Source: Candidatus Beckwithbacteria bacterium (GTDB lineage Bacteria > Patescibacteriota > Microgenomatia > UBA1400 > CG1-02-47-37). Taken from it: a stretch of 64,000 nt of DNA. The stretch's first letter is position 1, and each line of letters starts with the position of its first letter. The notes below the pieces were generated by a model. It was not told the origin of the DNA. It was given only the letters and a program-made list of their open reading frames with translations, and did not search any database. The stretch lies in assembly GCA_026397255.1 (NCBI GenBank), contig JAPLVF010000013.1, positions 150,062-214,061 on the forward strand, written 5' to 3'. The translations under genes were made by a program, and so were the position numbers. This document shows positions 5,305 through 47,214 of the stretch, in pieces.

Positions 5305-6048
5305 TTATGATTTGATGGCCTTAATCGTTAAAAAGAGAGGGAATTCTGAACGGCTGCGATTTTCCATTTTGGCAGCGCCACCCTCGCTGGATTTATCCGA
5401 AGTCCATTCTTCAATTAATTGAATGACAAAACCGGCTGAGGCCAGCATTTGGGAATAAACCGACAGCGGCTGATGAAAACTCCAGGTCACGGAAGAATGG
5501 CGCTGGCCGGGGTGCATCTGAATGGGAATTTCTAAAGGAGACAAATAACGGTTAATCCGGCGATACTGCAGTTTGTTAGCTTCATCAATCCCCCAGCTGG
5601 ATTGGCGGGGAATCCGGAAACAAGGATGGTTAAGGACAATGACTAAAGTGCCATTTTTAATTAGGTGCTTCCCGGCATTAGTGATGACGCAGGCCGGAGT
5701 TTTAATGTTTTGTAAAGATAAAATTAAAGTAGCGTGGGTAAAGTCCTGGGCCACAGACAGCGGTTTAGACACGTCAGCCACAAGGTATTGATGGTGGGTA
5801 TTTTTGTCGGAACGCTTGGCAGATTCAATTAAGTTCGGAGATAGATCAATCCCGGTATAACTAATGGCCGGGGCCAAACGGCGGGCTAGAACGCCAGCAC
5901 CGCAAGCTAAGTCTAAAATTTTACTTTTTGAATTTAAATTTAACAGCTTTAGAACACCCCCAAGAACAATGTGTTCGTGATAATAGTGACCGGAACCGGC
6001 AGTTAACTCGCTATACCAGCGACTATCTTTTTGCCAAGAAGTTTGCAT
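5305..6048 (-). CDS. Class I SAM-dependent methyltransferase
   Basis: Motif I ILDLACGAGVL and a Rossmann-fold methyltransferase pattern. The C-terminal tail lies inside repeat B. Confidence 0.6.
   Translation of the reverse strand: MQTSWQKDSRWYSELTAGSGHYYHEHIVLGGVLKLLNLNSKSKILDLACGAGVLARRLAPAISYTGIDLSPNLIESAKRSDKNTHHQYLVADVSKPLSVAQDFTHATLILSLQNIKTPACVITNAGKHLIKNGTLVIVLNHPCFRIPRQSSWGIDEANKLQYRRINRYLSPLEIPIQMHPGQRHSSVTWSFHQPLSVYSQMLASAGFVIQLIEEWTSDKSSEGGAAKMENRSRSEFPLFLTIKAIKS
5310..5362. repeat. 53-bp direct repeat, copy B; also encodes the last ~18 codons of the methyltransferase gene
   Basis: atttgatggccttaatcgttaaaaagagagggaattctgaacggctgcgattt. Its reverse complement reads ...MENRSRSEFPLFLTIKAIKS followed by a stop. 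Confidence 0.8.
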
Positions 6049-7075: not shown

Positions 7076-7102
7076 CTCTATCACATTCCGGGAATGTGAT
7101 TA
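7076..7102. repeat. REP-like palindrome, subtype I (copy 1), in the folA-thyA intercistronic gap
   Basis: ctctatcacattccgggaatgtgatta has 10-bp perfectly complementary arms. The same 26 bp recur at 46776-46802. Confidence 0.8.
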
Positions 7103-8050
7103 GAATCCTCCGACAACGGTAATATCGGCTTTAATGCCGGAATGCGGATTGTAGCCAATAACCTCAAAATCTGCGAATTTAAAATCGTCAATGTTGGTAA
7201 CTTTGGGGTTTATTTTCATCACCGGAAACGGACGGGGCTGGCGTTTCAACTGAGTCTTGACCTGTTCAATATGATTGGCATAAATATGGGCGTCGCCGAA
7301 AGTGTGGATAAACTCACCCGGCTGGTAACCGGTAACCTGGGCGAGCATTAAAGTCAGTAAAGCGTAAGAAGCAATATTAAACGGTACGCCTAAAAACATA
7401 TCGGCCGAGCGCTGATATAAAAGCAGAGATAATTTATTAGCGGTAATATTAATGTGAAACAGGGTGTGACAAGGAGCAATGACCATGGAAGCGTCGTGTG
7501 AGCCGGACATTTCGTAAATACAGCCGGCGTTCCAAGCGGAAATAATGTAGTGCTTTTTTTGTGGATATTTTTTAATCTTCTCAATCGCCCAGCCGAGTTG
7601 ATCGATAGTACGGGGCTTGCCCGCCGAAGCCTCGGCGAAGGCGGGCCAGTGGCGCCATTGGACGCCGTAAACTGCGCCTAGTTGGCCGTATTTTTCGACA
7701 AAACCGGATTTATTTTTCAGGTTAACCATAAATTCTTCATAAGGTATCGGTTTGGTAACGCCCCAGCTATATTTTTTGTAGGCCCATTCGTCCCAAATGT
7801 GGACGTCATTGTCGATTAAATATTTAATATTGGAGGAGCCGGATAAAAACCATAAAAGTTCGTGGATGATCCCGCGGACAAAAACTTTTTTAGTGGTTAA
7901 AAGCGGGAACCCTTTGGACAAATCAAAGCGGATTTGCCGGCCGAAAACCGATTTTAATTTGACCCCGGTCGAGTGGCTGATTTTCCATTGGCCGTTGTCC
8001 AGAATGTCCTGAAGCAAATCTAAATATTGATATTCCGGGTGTTTTGACAT
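7100..8050 (-). CDS. thyA: Thymidylate synthase ThyA
   Basis: ThyA motifs: R..DLS.GFPLLTTKKVF, LWFL.G..N and ...PCH.LFH. The start is placed at MSKHPEYQYLDLL; the ORF-track start at 8104 adds an unlikely 18 codons. Confidence 0.9.
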   Translation of the reverse strand: MSKHPEYQYLDLLQDILDNGQWKISHSTGVKLKSVFGRQIRFDLSKGFPLLTTKKVFVRGIIHELLWFLSGSSNIKYLIDNDVHIWDEWAYKKYSWGVTKPIPYEEFMVNLKNKSGFVEKYGQLGAVYGVQWRHWPAFAEASAGKPRTIDQLGWAIEKIKKYPQKKHYIISAWNAGCIYEMSGSHDASMVIAPCHTLFHINITANKLSLLLYQRSADMFLGVPFNIASYALLTLMLAQVTGYQPGEFIHTFGDAHIYANHIEQVKTQLKRQPRPFPVMKINPKVTNIDDFKFADFEVIGYNPHSGIKADITVVGGF

Positions 8051-8077
8051 ATAAATAGTTTCTGTTATCATTAAACA

Positions 8078-8560
8078 ATGAAAACAAAAAAAAGCCAACC
8101 CCAACTAAAAAACCCAAGAATCTTCGTGATTGTTTTAGCAATTTTAGCGTTTTTAGGTTTGTTGTTTTATTTTAAAAATCAAATTGTGGTGGCTTGGGTA
8201 AACGGCCGGCCAATCTGGAAGTTGAGCTATAGCCAAGAATTAAATCGACTGGCCGGACAACAGGCATTAAATTCGGTGATTACTAAAACTTTAATTACCA
8301 GTGAAGCTAAAAAACAAAAAGTCAGTGTGGCTAATAATGAAATTCAGGCCGAGATCAGCCGGATAGAAGACTTAGCAAAACAGCAAGGGACTGATTTAAA
8401 TGAACTGTTAACTTTACAAGGGATGACGAGGCAAGACCTGACGGAAGATATCAAATTAAACAAATTGGTAGAAAAAATGGCCGGAACTGAAAGCGCGCAG
8501 ATTCAGGATTGGCTGACCAATTTACAAACGCAGGCGAAGATAATTAAGTGGGTCAAGTAA
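8078..8560 (+). CDS. Hypothetical membrane-anchored protein (SurA-N/chaperone-like?)
   Basis: 160 aa with an N-terminal TM helix followed by a charged helical domain. No firm family assignment. Confidence 0.4.
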   Translation: MKTKKSQPQLKNPRIFVIVLAILAFLGLLFYFKNQIVVAWVNGRPIWKLSYSQELNRLAGQQALNSVITKTLITSEAKKQKVSVANNEIQAEISRIEDLAKQQGTDLNELLTLQGMTRQDLTEDIKLNKLVEKMAGTESAQIQDWLTNLQTQAKIIKWVK

Positions 8561-17732: not shown

Positions 17733-19100
17733 ATGAAGATTAAGCTGCCTGAATTGGTGGTTAAAGTTTTGGAAACTTTGGAAAAGGCCGGATTTGAAGC
17801 TTATGTGGTGGGTGGAGCAGTCAGGGATATCTTAACAGAAACGCCGGTTAAAGATTGGGATTTCACTAGCGATGCTAACCCAGAAGAAATTGTGAAACTA
17901 TTTAAAGAGGCTTTCTATGATAATCGATTTGGAACCGTGGGTGTGGCGGCTAAACATCTGGAAGAACAATTCGGATTAAAAAGTAAGACTGACAGAGTCT
18001 ATGAAATAACCACTTTCAGAAGCGAATCGGGATATTCAGACAGACGGCGGCCGGATAAGGTGGCGTGGGGAAAAAGCTTAAAAGAAGATTTAAAAAGAAG
18101 GGATTTTACTATTAATGCCATGAGTTTTAATAAAAATCTAAAATTGATCGATCCGTTTGAGGGAGAAAAAGATTTAACCAATAAACTAATTAGAGCGGTT
18201 GGCGACCCGAATAAAAGATTTCAAGAAGACGCTTTAAGAATGATGCGGGCAATCAGAATTGCCAGCCAATTAGGTTTTAGCATAGAAATAAAAACCCTGG
18301 CAGCGATTAGTAAAAACAGCACTTTAATTAAACAAATCAGCGCCGAAAGAGTAAGGGATGAATTATTAAAAATTCTGGGCTCGAAATATCCAAAAGACGG
18401 AATTTTATTATTATTCAGCACGGGAATTTTAAAATATATTTTGCCGGAATTAATCGAGACGCGGGAAATCGAACAGGCGGGACACCACACTAAAGATGTT
18501 TGGAATCACAGTTTGGATAGTTTAGCCGCCTCTCCCTCCCCCAACCCGATTATCCGCTTAGCCACTTTACTTCATGATATCGGCAAACCGATGGTTAAGG
18601 CAAGCCGGGAAGGTAAAGAAATTACTTTTTACAACCACGAGGTCGCCGGGGCCAGAATGACGAAACTTATCAGCCGCCGTTTGCGCTTATCAAAAAAAGA
18701 CAGCGACTTGCTATGGTTATTGGTCCGCTGGCATATGTTCGCTTATGAACCGAAAATGACTGATAAAGCTATCAGAAGATTTATCCGCCGGATCGGCAAA
18801 GAAAATATTAATAATATGATAATGCTCCGGGTTGGCGACCGCATTGGCGGCGGAAGCAAGGCGACTTCGTGGCGGCTACGCGAATTACAGGAAAGGATTG
18901 AGCAGGTATTGTATACGCCGATGCAAATTACTGACTTAAAAGTTAACGGTAAAGATGTAATGGACACTTTAAATATTCCAAGCGGACCGAAAGTCGGCCA
19001 AATTTTGAAAAAAATATTTGATGAAGTAATGGAAGACGCCACCAAAAACGACCGGGAGTATTTGTTAAAGAGAATTAAAGAAATACAAACTCATACTTGA
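17733..19100 (+). CDS. cca: CCA-adding tRNA nucleotidyltransferase with HD domain
   Basis: GGAVRDIL...DWDF polymerase-beta head and the HD motif LLHDIGKP. 455 aa. Confidence 0.85.
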   Translation: MKIKLPELVVKVLETLEKAGFEAYVVGGAVRDILTETPVKDWDFTSDANPEEIVKLFKEAFYDNRFGTVGVAAKHLEEQFGLKSKTDRVYEITTFRSESGYSDRRRPDKVAWGKSLKEDLKRRDFTINAMSFNKNLKLIDPFEGEKDLTNKLIRAVGDPNKRFQEDALRMMRAIRIASQLGFSIEIKTLAAISKNSTLIKQISAERVRDELLKILGSKYPKDGILLLFSTGILKYILPELIETREIEQAGHHTKDVWNHSLDSLAASPSPNPIIRLATLLHDIGKPMVKASREGKEITFYNHEVAGARMTKLISRRLRLSKKDSDLLWLLVRWHMFAYEPKMTDKAIRRFIRRIGKENINNMIMLRVGDRIGGGSKATSWRLRELQERIEQVLYTPMQITDLKVNGKDVMDTLNIPSGPKVGQILKKIFDEVMEDATKNDREYLLKRIKEIQTHT

Positions 19101-19139: not shown

Positions 19140-19448
19140 ATGAAAAAGATTTATTATGACAAAAATGCTGATAAAGAACTGGCTGAATTTTCCATTTCAG
19201 TTCAAAAAGTTTTCTTATCTTTAATCAATATTTTGAAAACAACCGGAAAACTGGAGTTTCCGGTAACTAAAAAACTTGAGAAAAATCTTTATGAAATCAG
19301 AGTTAAGTTACAAGGAGAATTCCGAGGTTTTTATGCATATATGGGAAAAGAATTTATTGTCATTCTTCACTTTTTCCATAAAAAGACCCAGAAAACACCG
19401 TTAAAAAACCTAAAAACCGCTAAAAGGAGGTTAAAACAATATGAATGA
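19140..19448 (+). CDS. higB: Type II toxin, HigB / Gp49-like (RelE/ParE superfamily)
   Basis: 102 aa. Contains LYEIRV...GFYAY...FIVILHFFHKKTQKTP, characteristic of the Gp49/HigB family. Overlaps the downstream HTH gene by 8 bp. Confidence 0.6.
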   Translation: MKKIYYDKNADKELAEFSISVQKVFLSLINILKTTGKLEFPVTKKLEKNLYEIRVKLQGEFRGFYAYMGKEFIVILHFFHKKTQKTPLKNLKTAKRRLKQYE

Positions 19449-19746
19449 TAAAATTAAAACCGCAATTAAAAGAGGAGATTTAATTTCTTATGATGAAGTT
19501 TTTTCGCGGTATTCTAAAAAACACCAAAGAGAAATTTTAAAACAAGCCCGCTATTTAAAAGCGGCCATGGCCTTAAGAAAATTAAGAAAACAACTGAAAT
19601 TAACCCAAGAAAAATTGGCCAGTAAAATGAAAGTAAAACGGGAATTTATCAGCCGGGCAGAAAGCGGAGAGCAAAACTTAACCCTGGAAACTCTCTATCA
19701 AATCGCCGAAGCGACGGGTAAAAGTTTTCGGTTTCAGTTTAAATAA
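19441..19746 (+). CDS. higA: Type II antitoxin, HigA-like XRE-family HTH protein
   Basis: LTQEKLASKMKVKREFISRAESGEQNLTLETLYQIAEATGK is a canonical HTH_XRE. The toxin-first gene order is that of HigBA. Confidence 0.65.
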   Translation: MNDKIKTAIKRGDLISYDEVFSRYSKKHQREILKQARYLKAAMALRKLRKQLKLTQEKLASKMKVKREFISRAESGEQNLTLETLYQIAEATGKSFRFQFK

Positions 19747-19800
19747 ATCTACGACGCTTCCAAAAACGAGAGGGAATATTTGTTGAAGAAAATTAAAGAT

Positions 19801-19826
19801 TCTCACATACCGGGTGTGTGATAGAG
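19801..19826. repeat. REP-like palindrome (subtype II variant) 5 bp downstream of the RAYT gene stop
   Basis: tctcacataccgggtgtgtgatagag. The arms tcacatacc and ggtgtgtga pair with one G-T wobble. Confidence 0.75.
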
Positions 19827-19830
19827 AAAA

Positions 19831-20517
19831 TTAGTCAGTTTCAGGATTTTCAAGCAAGATGTGTTTAATTATTGATAGTTCTCTTTGATAATCAGCCTGG
19901 CCAAAAATAAAATCTTCATAACCATTAAGTTTTTTAAAATAGTTAACAATAATGTCTTTCTGACAAATTTCATTTTTTAATCTTAAGTATTCCGGAAGTG
20001 AAGAATATTGATAGTCTTTTAAGCTGGAGATTGTCTTGATGATTCCGGAACTATAAGGATTAAGATGGATATAGCGGGTAACGTGTAAAAGTTGTTGTTC
20101 CGTTTCGACTCTTATAGATTTAAATCTTCCTTGGAAAATTGGCCCTATTCTTTTATTCTTAACATTAAAATAATGAGTATAGCTTTCAGATAGTTTGCGC
20201 ATAAATTCAGAAATTCCTTTATCGTTAACTTGTTTTAAGAGAAAATGAAAATGATTAGGCATTAAACAATAACAGATGATCTCTACGAAATATTTTTTTG
20301 ATTCATTTAGTTTTAATAAATACTCTGCTCTTACTGATTGCGGTAATCGGGAAAAGTATGAATACCGCATTGATTGTTGGTAATGCTGATAGTAAAGAGC
20401 AGTTTCTAAGAATCGACGATAATAGCGATTATCATTGAAAATTGGCATTGAAGCTACGCCGCGATTAATAACGTGATAAATTTCCCCTGTAACTAAAGGA
20501 TCTTCTCTACTGGGCAT
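19831..20517 (-). CDS. Y1 HuH tyrosine transposase, REP-associated (RAYT / IS200-like TnpA)
   Basis: HuH motif CLMPNHFHFLL and the catalytic-Tyr motif VTRYIHLNP. The gene is bracketed by inverted REP palindromes (19801-19826 and 20538-20561). Confidence 0.7.
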   Translation of the reverse strand: MPSREDPLVTGEIYHVINRGVASMPIFNDNRYYRRFLETALYYQHYQQSMRYSYFSRLPQSVRAEYLLKLNESKKYFVEIICYCLMPNHFHFLLKQVNDKGISEFMRKLSESYTHYFNVKNKRIGPIFQGRFKSIRVETEQQLLHVTRYIHLNPYSSGIIKTISSLKDYQYSSLPEYLRLKNEICQKDIIVNYFKKLNGYEDFIFGQADYQRELSIIKHILLENPETD

Positions 20518-20537
20518 TGATTTTTATACTACTATTA

Positions 20538-20575
20538 CTATCACACACCGGGTGTGTGATGTCGAGAATGTGATG
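20538..20575. repeat. REP-like palindrome subtype II (copy 3) plus an adjacent half-site
   Basis: ctatcacacaccgggtgtgtgatg has perfect 10-bp arms and is followed by gagaatgtgatg, a subtype-I half-site. The palindrome supplies the last codons (HHTPGV) and stop of secF. Confidence 0.8.
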
Positions 20576-21437
20576 TTTTAATTTCTTCCCAGAGAACTAA
20601 TAAAGGCGCGGCGGTAAAGGTGGAAGAATAGGTGCCGGAGACGGTGCCGATTAATAAGGCAAAAACAAACCATTTAGTGGTGGAACCGCCGAATAAATAC
20701 AAGGCTAAAAGCATAAAAATAATCGTTAAGGAATTATTAAGCGAGCGGCCGAGGGTTTCGGTAACGGCTTTGTTGACTAACTGGGTAAAAGATAATTTAG
20801 GAAAGAGTTTTTGCGATTCACGGATACGGTCATAAACAACAATGGTGTCATGAACAGAAAAAGACAAAATCGTCAACAAGGCGGTGACAAACAAAGAATC
20901 GATTTCCACCCCAAAATAAACTCCTAAGAAAGCAAAGACACCGATCATAATAAAAGTGTCATGCAGCATAGCTAAGATGGCACAAACACCGAATTTGGCA
21001 TTGCGAAAACGATAAGCGACATAGCCAAGAATAAAGCCGGCAGAAAGCAGAATGCCAACAATGGTCTTCAGGATTAATTCTTTTCCCAGCGTCGGTCCAA
21101 TTGTTTCAAAGCGTTTTTCACTGACGGGTCCGAATTTTTGAGAAATGGCTGTCTGCAATTTTTGACTGGCTGATTGGTCGATGACTTGAGAACGGATAAT
21201 AAAGGTGTTAACCCCGGCAGTCTGCAGATTGCTTAAAGCAATTTCTGACTCCACCACCGGACGCAGTTCATTTAAAGCAATATTTTTATCAGATTGAAGG
21301 CTAATTTCCAATAAGCTGCCGCCGGTAAAATCGACGCTGGGCTTTAAACCGTGGCGAATAAGAAAATACAAACCAGGCAGAATAAACAATAAAGAAAAAG
21401 CAAAGTATAAATATTTGTATTTCATGAAGTTGATCAT
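20541..21437 (-). CDS. secF: Protein translocase subunit SecF
   Basis: SecF N-terminus ...SVDFTGGSLLEI and 6 TM segments. The C-terminal SHSRHHTPGV plus stop is encoded by REP copy 3. Confidence 0.9.
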   Translation of the reverse strand: MINFMKYKYLYFAFSLLFILPGLYFLIRHGLKPSVDFTGGSLLEISLQSDKNIALNELRPVVESEIALSNLQTAGVNTFIIRSQVIDQSASQKLQTAISQKFGPVSEKRFETIGPTLGKELILKTIVGILLSAGFILGYVAYRFRNAKFGVCAILAMLHDTFIMIGVFAFLGVYFGVEIDSLFVTALLTILSFSVHDTIVVYDRIRESQKLFPKLSFTQLVNKAVTETLGRSLNNSLTIIFMLLALYLFGGSTTKWFVFALLIGTVSGTYSSTFTAAPLLVLWEEIKTSHSRHHTPGV

Positions 21438-26517: not shown

Positions 26518-27324
26518 ATGAGTCTTTTAAGGTGGTTTTATCAGCTTTCCTGGAAAAAAATTATGGGGTTTGGAATTTTCCTGCTGCTGGTGGCGGTAAT
26601 TCCGATCAGTATTCAAGTGGCGACTAACCAAACCCGAACCAGGTCGGAGGCGGCGTTAATCCATCCCAGTGTTCAACCGGTAACGGATAGGTTTGAAACA
26701 CCGGCTGGTCCGCCAAAAATTTATTTAGTCGATCACTTCTTCGGTAAAGTCGGCGATTCTGTCTTGATTCACGGCGAAAATCTGGGCGGAATTCACCCGC
26801 AAAGCGCGGTTTATCTGGCCGGCACGAAAATTCCCCACGAAAATTTGGTTTCCTGGACCGGCAGTTACATTGAATTTAAAGTTCCTGAGGGGGCTAAATC
26901 CGGAATAGTGGAAGTGAATATTTTAGGCCAGAAAACCAGTTGGCCGGGAATGTTTTTTGTGACGGACGAGTACACGGAAGCCGAATTGGCTTTAACCAAA
27001 AATCAAAACATTCCTAATGTTGCCAACTTAACGGCGACAAATATTCAATCGGCAGAAGAAATATTGGTGTGGCTGTTAATTTTCAGCGGCGACGGCGGCT
27101 TGACCATCAGTCCACTTAACGCCACAATTACTGAGCAAAATATAATTAACCTGCCGATTGGCAAAGTCTATGAACTGAAGCTAACCAACTTAAATGAAAA
27201 GGGGGAACTGTTAAAAATAGTTAAAGGTGAAAAACAGATGGTGGGGATTGCCCGGGCGGAAATTTCCCGTGCTGACAACACATTGATCCCGGTCAAATCC
27301 AACCCGCTATACGTGAGTTTTTAA
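26518..27324 (+). CDS. Membrane-anchored protein with an IPT/TIG-like domain
   Basis: N-terminal TM. IYLVDHFFGKVGDSVLIHGENLGG...VYLAGTKIP...GSYIEFKVPEGAKSGIVEV fits the IPT/TIG beta-sandwich pattern. Confidence 0.4.
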   Translation: MSLLRWFYQLSWKKIMGFGIFLLLVAVIPISIQVATNQTRTRSEAALIHPSVQPVTDRFETPAGPPKIYLVDHFFGKVGDSVLIHGENLGGIHPQSAVYLAGTKIPHENLVSWTGSYIEFKVPEGAKSGIVEVNILGQKTSWPGMFFVTDEYTEAELALTKNQNIPNVANLTATNIQSAEEILVWLLIFSGDGGLTISPLNATITEQNIINLPIGKVYELKLTNLNEKGELLKIVKGEKQMVGIARAEISRADNTLIPVKSNPLYVSF

Positions 27325-27325
27325 C

Positions 27326-27350
27326 CTATCACACACCGGGTGTGTGATTA
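27326..27350. repeat. REP-like palindrome subtype II (copy 4)
   Basis: ctatcacacaccgggtgtgtgatta, identical in its core to copy 3. It provides the terminal NHTPGV plus stop of ORF 27329..27904. Confidence 0.8.
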
Positions 27351-27904
27351 CTCAATAGCTGATGGGGAAAACACTCTTTTATTACCGCTTCTACGATTGC
27401 TTTTCGAACTGATCCATCAGGGATATTAAACCACCTAATGTTAAGACTTCTATTACGTTCCCATAGTATTTCCGATGCTCTGGCTATGGCAAATAATTCC
27501 GGACTAACATCTGTATATAATGAACGGCACTCAGATTTCGCTGCCAACTCATCAAGTTCAAAGGCTATCTCAAGCCTATGGCAAATTTGTTCAATTTCTT
27601 CATTTTTTAAATGATTAAATAATTTATTTCTAGAGGGGTTGTTGATAATAGCTTCGGAAATCTTACCAGGAGCGTCTCCTTCAATATCAGCATTTGCTTG
27701 TTGAGCCGCACTAAATCCTAATAAGCCTATTAAATGGGGATCATCAGTCACAATTCCAGGCAAACTTGGTTTAAAAGTTTCATCGTGGATCGCCTGCCGG
27801 TTAAATTTTCCCCAAAAGAAGGCTGTAGCTAATAGTATTACTTCTTTGTCATGAGGAGAGATATTTTTGAGGAACTCAGAAGGCCGAATCAATTCTTTTC
27901 CCAT
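27329..27904 (-). CDS. Hypothetical protein
   Basis: 191 aa with no recognisable domain and AT-rich codon usage. The C-terminal HTPGV and stop are read from the REP palindrome. Confidence 0.4.
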   Translation of the reverse strand: MGKELIRPSEFLKNISPHDKEVILLATAFFWGKFNRQAIHDETFKPSLPGIVTDDPHLIGLLGFSAAQQANADIEGDAPGKISEAIINNPSRNKLFNHLKNEEIEQICHRLEIAFELDELAAKSECRSLYTDVSPELFAIARASEILWERNRSLNIRWFNIPDGSVRKAIVEAVIKECFPHQLLSNHTPGV

Positions 27905-40400: not shown

Positions 40401-40474
40401 CGGGGATTAGTTTAACGGTAGAATGCGCGCATGGGGTGCGCGTGGCGACAGTTCAATTCTGTCATCCCCGACCA
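40401..40474 (+). tRNA. tRNA-Pro (anticodon GGG), 3' CCA encoded
   Basis: Manual fold: acceptor CGGGGAU/AUCCCCG; D-arm GUUU-AACGGUA-GAAU; anticodon arm CGCGC-AUGGGGU-GCGCG (U33, GGG, G37); variable UGGC; T-arm GACAG-UUCAAUU-CUGUC; discriminator A; then CCA. Confidence 0.7.
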
Positions 40475-44975: not shown

Positions 44976-45919
44976 AAAGAATCCATTAATTGGGTTCGCA
45001 TTTTTAAGGCGCCTTTAAAGCCTTTGAGGTAAATCTTCAGAAAACGTTTCAGGGGATGAATCGGTTTAATTTCACCCCAGGTTTGCCGGTAAATTTCTAA
45101 ATGGCGTTGCCAGGCGGCGATTTTGTCTGTCTTAGTTTTGGGAGTTTGCACAGCATTAAAAATCCAGGGGTTTTTAAAAACTCCCCGGCCGATCATAATG
45201 CCGTCCACTCCGGTTTCCCTGATTCTTTGATAAGCAGTTTCCCGGGAAAAAATATCGCCGTTGCCGATAATTAAAGTTTTGGGGTTAAATTGGTTTTTTA
45301 AAGCCACAATTTTTTTAATTTCTTTCCAGTGAGCCGGGCCTGTTGACATTTTTTTGGTGGTACGGCAGTGGACGGAAACCGCCGCTAAGTCAAAATTGAG
45401 TAAAAATTTAAACCAAGGCTGGATATTGATGGTTTTATAGCCCAGGCGGGTTTTAACTGAAACCGGCAAACGACCCTTGGCGCCTTTAATCGTACTTTGA
45501 ATAATTTTTCCGGCTAAATCCGGATTGTCAATCAGGGCACCGCCGACGCCTTTTTTAACCACACTTGGTTCCGGACAGCCAAAGTTAATATCTATTCCGG
45601 CAAAACCAGCGCGAACGATAAAATCAGCGGCGGCGGCAAACAATTCCGGATCTAATCCCCATATTTGAGCAATCAATGGTTGTTCTTGAGAAGTGTAAGA
45701 TAAAAGTTGAGTGACGGTTTTGATGTCCGGCGAAAAAATGGCCTGGACATTGATAAATTCGGTGAACATTAAGTCCGGCCGGCCCAGTTCACAAAGCAAC
45801 TGGCGAAAAGCGGAGTCAGTCGCGCCAAACATCGGCGCCAGACAGAAAATTGGTTTAGGTAAAGTTTCCCAAATATTAACCATTGGCTGATGATATAATT
45901 TTTTTATGGATAAAGACAA
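44972..45919 (-). CDS. dus: tRNA-dihydrouridine synthase
   Basis: FCLAPMFGATDSAFRQL and a TIM-barrel flavin-binding pattern, with the catalytic Cys in the FGCP loop. Confidence 0.85.
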   Translation of the reverse strand: MSLSIKKLYHQPMVNIWETLPKPIFCLAPMFGATDSAFRQLLCELGRPDLMFTEFINVQAIFSPDIKTVTQLLSYTSQEQPLIAQIWGLDPELFAAAADFIVRAGFAGIDINFGCPEPSVVKKGVGGALIDNPDLAGKIIQSTIKGAKGRLPVSVKTRLGYKTINIQPWFKFLLNFDLAAVSVHCRTTKKMSTGPAHWKEIKKIVALKNQFNPKTLIIGNGDIFSRETAYQRIRETGVDGIMIGRGVFKNPWIFNAVQTPKTKTDKIAAWQRHLEIYRQTWGEIKPIHPLKRFLKIYLKGFKGALKMRTQLMDSL

Positions 45920-46769
45920 ATTCAGTGCGGTCTGGGTATCGCATTCGTCAATTTCCGATTGGCTGGCTTGCCCGCGGGCATATTATTTAAAAAATGTTTA
46001 CAAAGATCCGAAAACCGGGAGAAAAACGACCTTAATTAATCCGGCAATGGCCTTAGGACAGGCGGTCCACGAAGTGGTTGAAGGTTTGTCGGTATTATCA
46101 GTCGAGCGGAGATTTAGCCAATCTTTACTGGAAAAGCTGGAGGTCGTCTGGAAAAAAATCAGCGGGAAACGGGGCGGATTTTTAAACGAGAAAATTGAGG
46201 GTGAGTATAAACAACGGGGCCGAGAAATGCTCAAACGCGTAGAAACCAATCCCGGGGTGCTAAAAAATCTGGCAGTAAAAATTAAAATGGAACTACCCTA
46301 CTACTGGCTGTCGGAAAAAGACAATATTATTTTGTGCGGCAAAATCGACTGGCTGGAATACCTGAAAGAAACCGACAGTGTTCACATTATTGATTTTAAA
46401 ACCGGTAAAGATAATGAAAAAGCGGATTCACTGCAACTGCCAATTTATTATCTGCTGGCAACCAACACGCAAAAACGGCCGGTAACAAAAATGAGTTATT
46501 GGTACATTGATAGGGAAAACGAACCGGTAGAAAGAAAACTGCCGGACATTGATAAGGCCCGAGAGAAAATCCTGAAAATTGCCAAAGAGATGAAATTGGC
46601 CAGGCAACTGAACCGGTTTAAGTGCCCGACCAATGGTTGCCGGGAATGCAAGCCGATGGAGGCAATTATTAACGGTGAAGGTGAATTTGTGGGGAAAGAC
46701 GAAATCGGCCGAAGTGTGTATATTTTAACCAAATGTGAGAATCAAATCGGCAAAAGCGAGATTTTGTAA
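45906..46769 (+). CDS. PD-(D/E)XK nuclease with 4-Cys cluster (Cas4/RecB-like)
   Basis: SHSSISDWLACPRAYYL (N-terminal Cys), IDFKTGK (D...K) and C-terminal CPTNGCRECKP. This four-cysteine arrangement is typical of Cas4-like Fe-S nucleases. Confidence 0.6.
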   Translation: MDKDKFSAVWVSHSSISDWLACPRAYYLKNVYKDPKTGRKTTLINPAMALGQAVHEVVEGLSVLSVERRFSQSLLEKLEVVWKKISGKRGGFLNEKIEGEYKQRGREMLKRVETNPGVLKNLAVKIKMELPYYWLSEKDNIILCGKIDWLEYLKETDSVHIIDFKTGKDNEKADSLQLPIYYLLATNTQKRPVTKMSYWYIDRENEPVERKLPDIDKAREKILKIAKEMKLARQLNRFKCPTNGCRECKPMEAIINGEGEFVGKDEIGRSVYILTKCENQIGKSEIL

Positions 46770-46775
46770 AAATAC

Positions 46776-46802
46776 CTCTATCACATTCCGGGAATGTGAT
46801 TG
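46776..46802. repeat. REP-like palindrome subtype I (copy 5)
   Basis: ctctatcacattccgggaatgtgattg. It shares 26 identical bp with the copy at 7076-7102. Confidence 0.8.
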
Positions 46803-46806
46803 TATG

Positions 46807-47214
46807 TTACCTTTTTGGACTTTGCTTTTTGCGACGGGATTTGCCGCCCATGCCGATCATGCGGCGTTGACGCTCGCGGGGATCACGGGTAATAAAGCCT
46901 TTCTGGCGAAGCGGGGGTCTAAAATCCGGATTGGCCTTAACTAAGGCCCGGGCCAGACCGTGAATAACCGCGGTTAATTGGCTCATTTTGCCGGAACCGA
47001 GGACTTTGACAGTGACGTAATATTTATCCAAAACATCACAGGTCACCAATGGTTCCTGATAAAGCTTTTTTAAAACTGCGCCGGGAAAATATTTATCGAT
47101 GGGAAGATTATTGACTAACGTCTCCCCTTTTCCTTTAAACAGCCTGATGCGGCTGACCGCAGATTTTCTCCGACCGATAGCAAAAATATATTTAGGTGAT
47201 TTAACAGTTGTCAT
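46807..47214 (-). CDS. rpsI: 30S ribosomal protein S9
   Basis: GRRKSAVSRIRL... and a C-terminal ...RRKKQSPKR. Confidence 0.9.
   Translation of the reverse strand: MTTVKSPKYIFAIGRRKSAVSRIRLFKGKGETLVNNLPIDKYFPGAVLKKLYQEPLVTCDVLDKYYVTVKVLGSGKMSQLTAVIHGLARALVKANPDFRPPLRQKGFITRDPRERQRRMIGMGGKSRRKKQSPKR

Follow-up and report, generated by a model that had tools for sequence, protein, structure and literature searches.

Why should two unrelated proteins end in the same five amino acids? The question is posed by a 64-kb stretch of DNA (the window, from contig JAPLVF010000013.1) belonging to a groundwater bacterium of Candidatus Beckwithbacteria, within the candidate phyla radiation (CPR, or Patescibacteria), with a genome of about 1 Mb. 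In it secF and a hypothetical gene of 191 codons both finish inside copies of one palindrome, and these are the only two open reading frames (ORFs) in the window that end in HTPGV. The original prediction, made from the letters of the window, held that the palindrome carries TGA on both strands and was a repetitive extragenic palindrome (REP) that had inserted into or over the two 3' ends, remodelling the proteins. The reading of the strands is confirmed: each gives CAC ACA CCN GGT GTG TGA, which is HTPGV and a stop. I propose that the palindrome is very probably the cognate REP of the gene next to it, which codes for a tyrosine transposase associated with REPs (RAYT), that the REP-RAYT-REP unit has been inherited vertically between secF and cca, and that the tails are neutral by-products.

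The REP and its presumed transposase

The name REP is justified on three counts: the palindrome flanks a RAYT gene on both sides, solo copies are found elsewhere, and matching hairpins stand beside the RAYTs of other lineages. Its 19-nt core, TCACACACCGGGTGTGTGA on the plus strand, occurs twice, at 20541-20559 and 27329-27347. Extended by the A and the T that flank it, the 21-mer ATCACACACC-G-GGTGTGTGAT (20540-20560 and 27328-27348) is a perfect palindrome around its central G. A third copy, TCACATACCGGGTGTGTGA, has one mismatch and lies at 19803-19821 (21-mer 19802-19822); the original prediction overlooked it, and with it the RAYT gene. Three sites with at most 3 mismatches are to be compared with an expectation of 0.03, and none of 100 dinucleotide shuffles reached three. 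A looser pattern search brings out a second subfamily, ATCACATTCC-C-GGAATGTGAT, of which the window has two intact copies (each ATCACATTCCGGGAATGTGAT). One, at 7080-7100, abuts the TAA stop of an ORF at 7100-8104 on the minus strand, and the other, at 46780-46800, sits in the 37-nt spacer between convergent ORFs at 45906-46769 (plus) and 46807-47214 (minus). All five copies of the two subfamilies are therefore at gene 3' ends.

The element is a short palindrome, as the REP class requires, and is predicted to form a 9-bp stem with a triloop, of about -11 to -14.8 kcal/mol. Predicted RNA hairpins of the four copies with perfect stems come to about -9.6 to -14.8 kcal/mol (z down to -3.8), the copy at the end of secF reaching about -14.8 kcal/mol in a 60-nt context. 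The mismatched copy at 19803 has no stable predicted fold (-5.1 kcal/mol). A REP pattern scan of genome contigs gave at least 120 stretches, from Beckwith-, Ames-, Gottesman-, Shapiro- and Saccharibacteria, Omnitrophota (there as inverted doublets) and others. Copies were counted among the matches listed, 169 in all and 164 of them unique. Stem positions 7 and 13 covary in the 169 (A..T, C..G, T..A), and the flank after ...TGTGAT is ATAG-like (A in 51%, then G in 43%). The stem TCACA...TGTGA is conserved, so that every copy has TGA at the 3' end of both its strands, often followed by TAG. Placement is extragenic and mostly downstream of genes; about 15% of the 164 reach into an ORF's final 60 nt. 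The copies are singlets, not doublets, in the genome of the window, and fragments of the complete genome CP011210 contain at least 6 strict copies.

The mismatched copy (copy 1, 19803-19821) and the secF copy (copy 2, 20540-20560), both assigned to the minus strand, enclose a minus-strand gene at 19831-20517 that encodes 228 amino acids and is the only one of its kind in the window. Judged by sequence and by modelled fold, it is a RAYT, a domesticated transposase of the IS200/IS605 type, with HUH motif and tyrosine, for single-stranded DNA. The HUH motif is H89-F-H91 and the catalytic tyrosine is Tyr149 in RYIHLNP; they align with HMH and YIYINP of 4er8_A, the TnpAREP of E. coli, and are invariant in 30 RAYT homologues. 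Pfam Y1_Tnp matches with 36.3 bits (cut-off 23), and 4er8_A is the best match by sequence in PDB (1e-4). A Foldseek search of PDB with the AF2 model (pLDDT 90.6) again puts 4er8_A first, with E 5.8e-7 and a TM-score on the target of 0.68, followed by the TnpA of IS608 and of ISDra2 at 1.7e-4 or weaker. One REP lies 24 nt upstream of where the RAYT gene starts, the other 10 nt past its stop. Because REPs flank the gene on both sides, it forms a RAYT unit with them, bounded on the 5' side by the secF palindrome and on the 3' side by copy 1. There is, then, a REP at the end of secF, as predicted, but it is no stray insertion; it is resident.

How long has it resided there? The order secD-secF-REP-RAYT-REP-cca, with cca convergent, is kept across Candidatus Beckwithbacteria, and palindromes stand at the same two junctions. 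Comparisons between the same genomes give identities of 65-77% for SecF and 70-72% for the RAYT. Given the fixed synteny and a RAYT as conserved as its neighbours, the unit is old and vertically inherited. This is the behaviour described for RAYTs, which keep to a fixed site and pass from mother to daughter (bioRxiv 10.1101/2021.07.10.451892).

A further 80 metagenome loci were fetched by RAYT alignment, and their flanking hairpins were selected as palindromes. (Here and below, L-numbers denote loci read from genome contigs and metagenomes, and P-numbers SecF homologue proteins.) REPs stand on both sides of the RAYT in the window, L001, L003, L126-L143, L020, L026, L077, L088 and L103. The 5' and 3' hairpins of a RAYT are alike within a locus and differ between lineages: examples are CACACACC-C-GGTGTGTG, ATCACACC-TCTAA-GGTGTGAT, TAACACC-TCTAA-GGTGTTA, GTCCACC-TCTAA-GGTGGAC, TCCACTCC-G-GGAGTGGA and CAGGGGTTGAACCCCTG. 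By their central or loop bases, the flanking copies share one orientation (direct) in the window, L001, L003 and L137 and face opposite ways (inverted) in L026, L077, L103, L131 and L138. Since hairpin and enzyme change together across lineages, the palindrome is presumably the substrate of the RAYT. This is the strongest evidence for their partnership, and the match of 5' to 3' hairpin is free of circularity.

It might be argued that the 757-bp unit at 19803-20559 is a plain insertion sequence (IS) of the IS200/IS605 group, with solo copies that are decayed IS ends. The Y1_Tnp fold would suit it, as would the second place taken by IS608 and ISDra2 TnpA in the structural search and the hairpins that are direct by their central base, like the left and right ends of IS200/IS605. 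It is nevertheless a very unlikely account. The gene is present once in the window and occupies the same secF-cca site in genomes that span the above range of SecF identity, it is as conserved as the genes around it, and nothing of a transposase is left beside the solo copies. The best matches by sequence, profile and fold are all to RAYT/TnpAREP and not to IS200 TnpA.

Two observations on distribution may be added. An Omnitrophota metagenome-assembled genome (MAG), JAFGFL01, has the REP family in REPIN-like form, as inverted doublets spaced by 5 or 18 nt in which one strand shows a T.G wobble (L048, L054, L061, L070, L076, L078, L079, L086, L095, L104, L119, L124); a RAYT homologue is near them in L061. 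Several MAGs labelled 'uncultured Pseudomonadales' or 'Gammaproteobacteria' (e.g. L006, L011, L016, L040) bear the REP family and close CPR-type RAYTs, and their taxonomic labels may be wrong.

The end of secF

The secF gene (20541-21437, minus strand) encodes 298 amino acids as the longest ORF and 294 in the public record. It matches Pfam SecD_SecF_C (5.3e-49) and TIGR00966 (2.4e-79), and its product is 100% identical to P0001, from a Candidatus Beckwithbacteria MAG. The translation ends EEIKTSHSRHHTPGV (...SHSRHHTPGV). Copy 2, which is ATCACACACC-C-GGTGTGTGAT on the minus strand, supplies HHTPGV, the six final codons, together with the TGA, and an in-frame TAG follows directly. The four residues before it come from a half-site, so the tail had been correctly derived from half-site plus palindrome.

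Is this tail a property of SecF or of the DNA beneath it? In the best 120 SecF homologues, the tail has the form H/Y-H-T-x-x-V/M/L (HHTPGV, HHTPGM, HHTPEV, HHTSKV, YHTSKV and others) in 17 cases and S-H/R-S/P-R-x-V-I in 5; the more distant ones have short basic tails such as KRKK. The DNA of 16 secF-RAYT junctions, in which the RAYT starts 13-36 nt past the secF REP, was read for the state of the frame. In the first state the REP is wholly intergenic, following a native end in ...KKR, ...KRK or ...KRKG (L126, L131, L139). In the second the stop is the TGA of the REP, after HHTPGV or HHTSKV (the window, L001, L003, L005, L137, L143, L155). In the third it is the TAA of a TCTAA loop (L138, L140). 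In the fourth secF traverses the REP in another frame and stops just past it, in KTSHSRNVIE (L206), KASHSRCVID (L207) or FSHPRGVIE (L133). A variant, L142, runs through a REP of the TAACACC type and stops at a TAG in the 3' flank. The element is also met one gene upstream: in L005 a REP at 5963-5981 occupies the last codons of secD, giving the tail ...SHITHPVCDRGN, the third reading frame of the element.

When SecF cores are arranged on a neighbour-joining tree, the states fall in among one another. Three different tails occur on cores that are nearly identical (P0005/P0014, P0006, P0013), and P0003, which lacks a REP tail, is the sister of P0002, with its HHTPGM. As the frame states are scattered among near-identical cores, the peptide looks like a fast-changing by-product and the DNA element like the thing conserved. 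The orthologue comparison recommended with the original prediction has thus come out as expected, with a tail that is lineage-variable and scattered on the tree. Had HHTPGV been ancestral and the palindrome coincidental, the tail should also be met without a REP; the orthologues with HHTPGV whose DNA was read (L001, L003, L130, L132) all have the palindrome at that spot. That the shared tail derives from DNA also stands, the same element lying in other frames or outside the coding sequence at orthologous secF loci.

It is hardly credible, then, that HTPGV is a functional C-terminal peptide (a sorting signal, a degron or an interaction tag) selected at the level of protein, with the palindromy secondary. 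The idea draws on the presence of the same tail on many proteins in several species. But the carriers are unrelated: a membrane protein (SecF), a cytoplasmic CCA-adding enzyme, a transposase and hypothetical proteins. It is too much to ask of a peptide signal that it be outside the gene in L126, L131 and L139, in another frame in L206, L207 and L133, and cut short by a loop stop in L138 and L140, that near-identical SecF cores do with three versions of it, and that the REP copy between convergent genes at 46780-46800 go untranslated. The proposal is largely refuted.

The half-site carries the history of the junction one step back. It lies at 20562-20574 (minus strand) and reads TCACATTCTCGA opposite plus-strand positions 20562-20573, which matches the left arm and loop (ATCACATTCTCGA) of the second subfamily; it codes for S-H-S-R of the SecF tail. 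Up to the half-site's end the window has AAA ACA TCA CAT TCT CGA, and then, from copy 2, CAT CAC ACA CCC GGT GTG TGA. At the same place in secF L206 has AAA ACA TCA CAT TCC CGG AAT GTG ATA GAG TAG, with an intact ATCACATTCCCGGAATGTGAT. Because L206 holds an intact REP there, SHSR in the window can be recognized as the left arm and loop of a second-subfamily REP. It appears from this alignment that a complete first-subfamily REP replaced the right arm of a second-subfamily REP, and that the tail it overwrote was itself REP-derived. This qualifies the claim that an original secF 3' end was remodelled, for in this lineage the end that was lost was an older REP's. Partial left arms just upstream of a full REP at the end of secF are seen also in L133 (about 2456-2466), L138 (about 236-250), L140 (about 1342-1356) and L142 (about 2460-2466). 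It looks as though one REP after another had taken over the same nucleotide position, and this in several independent lineages; RAYT action and replication slippage are both candidates.

Other genes that end in the REP

What the 5' REP does for secF, the 3' REP does for the convergent gene cca, which in L001, L003, L130, L133 and L138 takes its stop from it (...YHTPGV, ...YHTSKV). One RAYT unit can end both its neighbours (secF and cca, in L001, L003 and L130) because TGA is present on both strands. In the window only a trace of this arrangement is left. About 70 nt of a cca 3' end (19749-19821, plus strand) are fused to copy 1 and end in ...KNEREYLLKKIKDSHIPGV and a stop; this is how the convergent cca ended ancestrally, in a REP. 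The relic aligns with the end of the live cca (19030-19100) as well as with the REP-stopped ends that cca has in L001 and L003, and it still runs on to the REP stop as ...DSHIPGV. The live cca now ends at 19100. Between it and the relic is a toxin-antitoxin cassette at 19140-19746, with a Gp49/HigB-like toxin (19140-19448) and a helix-turn-helix antitoxin (19441-19746); by the insertion of this cassette the end of cca was either duplicated or replaced. The tail of the live gene (..EIQTHT) may hold a decayed REP left arm.

The solo copy (copy 3, 27328-27348, minus strand) gives HTPGV and TGA to the 191-aa ORF at 27329-27904 (minus strand) and lies 4 nt past the stop of a convergent ORF of 268 codons at 26518-27324. 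The translation, ...LLSNHTPGV, agrees with what had been read. The gene has no family match. A search of 5.8 billion proteins found only five relatives. The four other homologues (58-86% identity) all end otherwise (...KLGRKNPDIRRRS, ...LGRENLGFLSSGETTKKL and others): the last 14 residues or so, CFPHQLLSNHTPGV, are absent from them. The DNA of the closest one, L208, ceases to be homologous 27 nt upstream of the REP; L208 has no palindrome of this kind. It is well supported by these comparisons that the 3' end of the gene was replaced by REP-bearing DNA. In L003 the gene is missing from the syntenic site, where BacA meets a 269-aa gene directly; relative to L003, it sits in the window between the convergent 268-aa gene and bacA. 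The closest homologue is in an unrelated context, with a PCMT-type methyltransferase after it, and the 191-aa ORF seems to be a small gene that is either mobile or an orphan.

The claim that the REP remodelled protein termini therefore fares unevenly. It holds for the 191-aa protein, with its differing orthologue ends and the break in homology, and it agrees with the varying tails of SecF. At secF, insertion is indistinguishable from loss of a native stop or spacer beside a REP already resident there.

How general is this? Among the 164 unique copies of the matches listed, 15 provide an ORF of 100 or more amino acids with its TGA (SecF, the CCA-adding enzyme, RAYT and hypothetical proteins), and, in the other two frames, another 9 fall inside an ORF's final 60 nt. 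In certain lineages the RAYT itself takes its stop from its own 3' REP, as at L026 (5624-5642) and at the RAYT 3' ends of L138 and L140; in an Amesbacteria MAG, for example, the tail is ...FLKHHTPGV. REPs more than 60 nt inside ORFs were mostly artefacts of calling ORFs from the most upstream start and were not counted as evidence; nor was a REP in the zinc finger of UvrA in Gracilimonas, a chance match.

With all five copies of the window at gene 3' ends, and with stable predicted hairpins, one could suppose that the palindrome is a regulatory site of the host, made in place and never mobile, serving either as the operator of a dimeric protein or as a hairpin that terminates or stabilizes transcripts. 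REPs act as mRNA stabilizers in E. coli, a point made also in the background of PMC3733652. I consider this quite unlikely. No copy is followed by a run of T, a scan for the terminator consensus calls none of them, and Rfam has no match around the palindromes at E <= 1 (the window's sole Rfam match at the gathering threshold is a tRNA gene at 40401-40471). One weak -35/-10 match overlies the secF REP, and the number of such matches in the region is that expected of shuffled sequence, so it was rejected as a promoter. A host site would also not be expected on both sides of the RAYT in many lineages, each time with a lineage-specific matching sequence, nor as a solo copy beside a lineage-specific gene that a relative lacks at the syntenic site. 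A RAYT-borne REP could still have a secondary role as a 3' hairpin: it might protect the 3' ends of transcripts or couple RAYT expression to the termination of secF.

A proposed route from hairpin to C-terminus

The explanation I favor, a REP that belongs to the resident RAYT, suggests how the tails could come about. The RAYT presumably would act on the hairpin in single-stranded DNA, seeding solo REP copies. A frame would then enter the hairpin in either of two ways: the native stop or the short spacer disappears, or the 3' end of a gene is hit or replaced by a REP. Having entered, the frame would end in the TGA (xHTPGV), at a stop in the loop or, in another frame, shortly past the hairpin (SHxRxVI..). 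The genome offers little room for anything else. Long ORFs cover a fraction of about 0.90 of the window, and the median gap between ORFs is 4.5 nt. With some 90% of the DNA coding and gaps of a few bases, a REP of 21-25 nt can hardly fit without touching coding ends. TGA is an ordinary stop here, ending 20 of 67 ORFs in the window. The tails would thus in all likelihood be tolerated by-products of a DNA element.

Several facts pull the other way. Only 5 REP copies were seen in the 64 kb of the window (classical REPs exceed 100 per genome), and the flank profile of the 169 copies shows no invariant GTAG or CGTC tag. The copies that flank the RAYT are direct, not inverted, in the window and in L001 and L003. 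The RAYT is about 60 aa longer than TnpAREP of E. coli, by a helical C-terminal extension, and its sole NCBIfam match, NF047646 REP_Tyr_transpos (2.9e-15, 56.4 bits), is under the equivalog cut-off of 80. That the RAYT cleaves or mobilizes this REP, I infer, as I do its part in dispersal, the order of events and the neutrality of the tails. Finally, the state in which secF runs into the REP has long persisted in several lineages, leaving room for a function of the stop inside the hairpin.

Such a function could take two forms. The REP may have been shaped to carry stops on both strands (TCA...TGA in the stem, TGA-TAG, TAA or TAG in the TCTAA loop), so that, in a genome where intergenic DNA is nearly absent, it would settle on gene ends without producing run-on proteins. 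Or ribosomes that finish secF inside the hairpin would melt it, tying translation or attenuation of the RAYT to secF and controlling the dosage of transposase. That the stop in the hairpin is used in one of these ways, and not just tolerated, seems improbable, though less so than any of the rival explanations above.

Parts of the picture I favor, tails left by a resident RAYT's REP, are familiar from other systems. The definition given for RAYTs includes a REP on either side (Nunvar et al. 2010, PMC2817692). The REPtrons of Proteobacteria (E. coli yafM/TnpAREP with its bacterial interspersed mosaic elements, and the RAYTs and REPINs of Stenotrophomonas and Pseudomonas; PMC2817692, PMC3479197, bioRxiv 10.1101/2021.07.10.451892) likewise join a single-copy HUH/Tyr gene to cognate palindromes, with dispersed solo copies, compensatory changes and a fixed site inherited vertically, and TnpAREP is the closest fold. 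The present system differs in its CPR host with a genome of about 1 Mb, in a near-perfect palindrome of 21-25 nt without an invariant GTAG head, in its singlets, in a RAYT of about 228 aa with a C-terminal extension, and in flanks that are direct or inverted according to locus. REP termini that supply stop codons have also been reported, for GTAG/CGTC-tagged REPs overlapping coding regions (Di Nocera et al. 2013, PMC3733652). The phenomenon is the same; here it is the stem that contains the TGA, whichever strand of a copy is read. IS200/IS605 elements share the catalytic fold and motifs (IS608 and ISDra2 TnpA) and the recognition of hairpins in single-stranded DNA, but they are autonomous, multi-copy and move horizontally, whereas the RAYT here is fixed by synteny and single-copy.

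Two further comparisons come to mind. Liang, Rudd and Deutscher reportedly found in 2015 that a REP within about 15 nt of the stop lowers expression in E. coli, through ribosome stalling and transfer-messenger RNA (tmRNA). Those REPs too are said to place a stable hairpin at or near the stop; here the stop is within the stem. Palindromic elements of Rickettsia, which Ogata et al. are said to have described in 2000 in frame in protein-coding genes (cited also in PMC3733652), are likewise palindromic repeats that join functional proteins in a reduced genome. They are reportedly 100-150 bp long and usually internal, adding 30-50 residues, and lack a known adjacent cognate transposase, unlike the elements here.

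No report of REP or RAYT in CPR/Patescibacteria was found in the searchable literature, and the partnership, so far studied almost only in Proteobacteria, would now extend to that group. The locus offers a clean comparative case of a DNA hairpin, selfish or domesticated, that writes the C-termini of essential proteins where intergenic space is missing: one fixed junction, sampled over many lineages and in all three frames. It follows that tails such as xHTPGV, SHxRxVI and ITHPVCD in CPR proteomes should be taken for the footprints of REPs and not for motifs, and the 'transposase' annotations beside secF in Beckwithbacteria for RAYTs.

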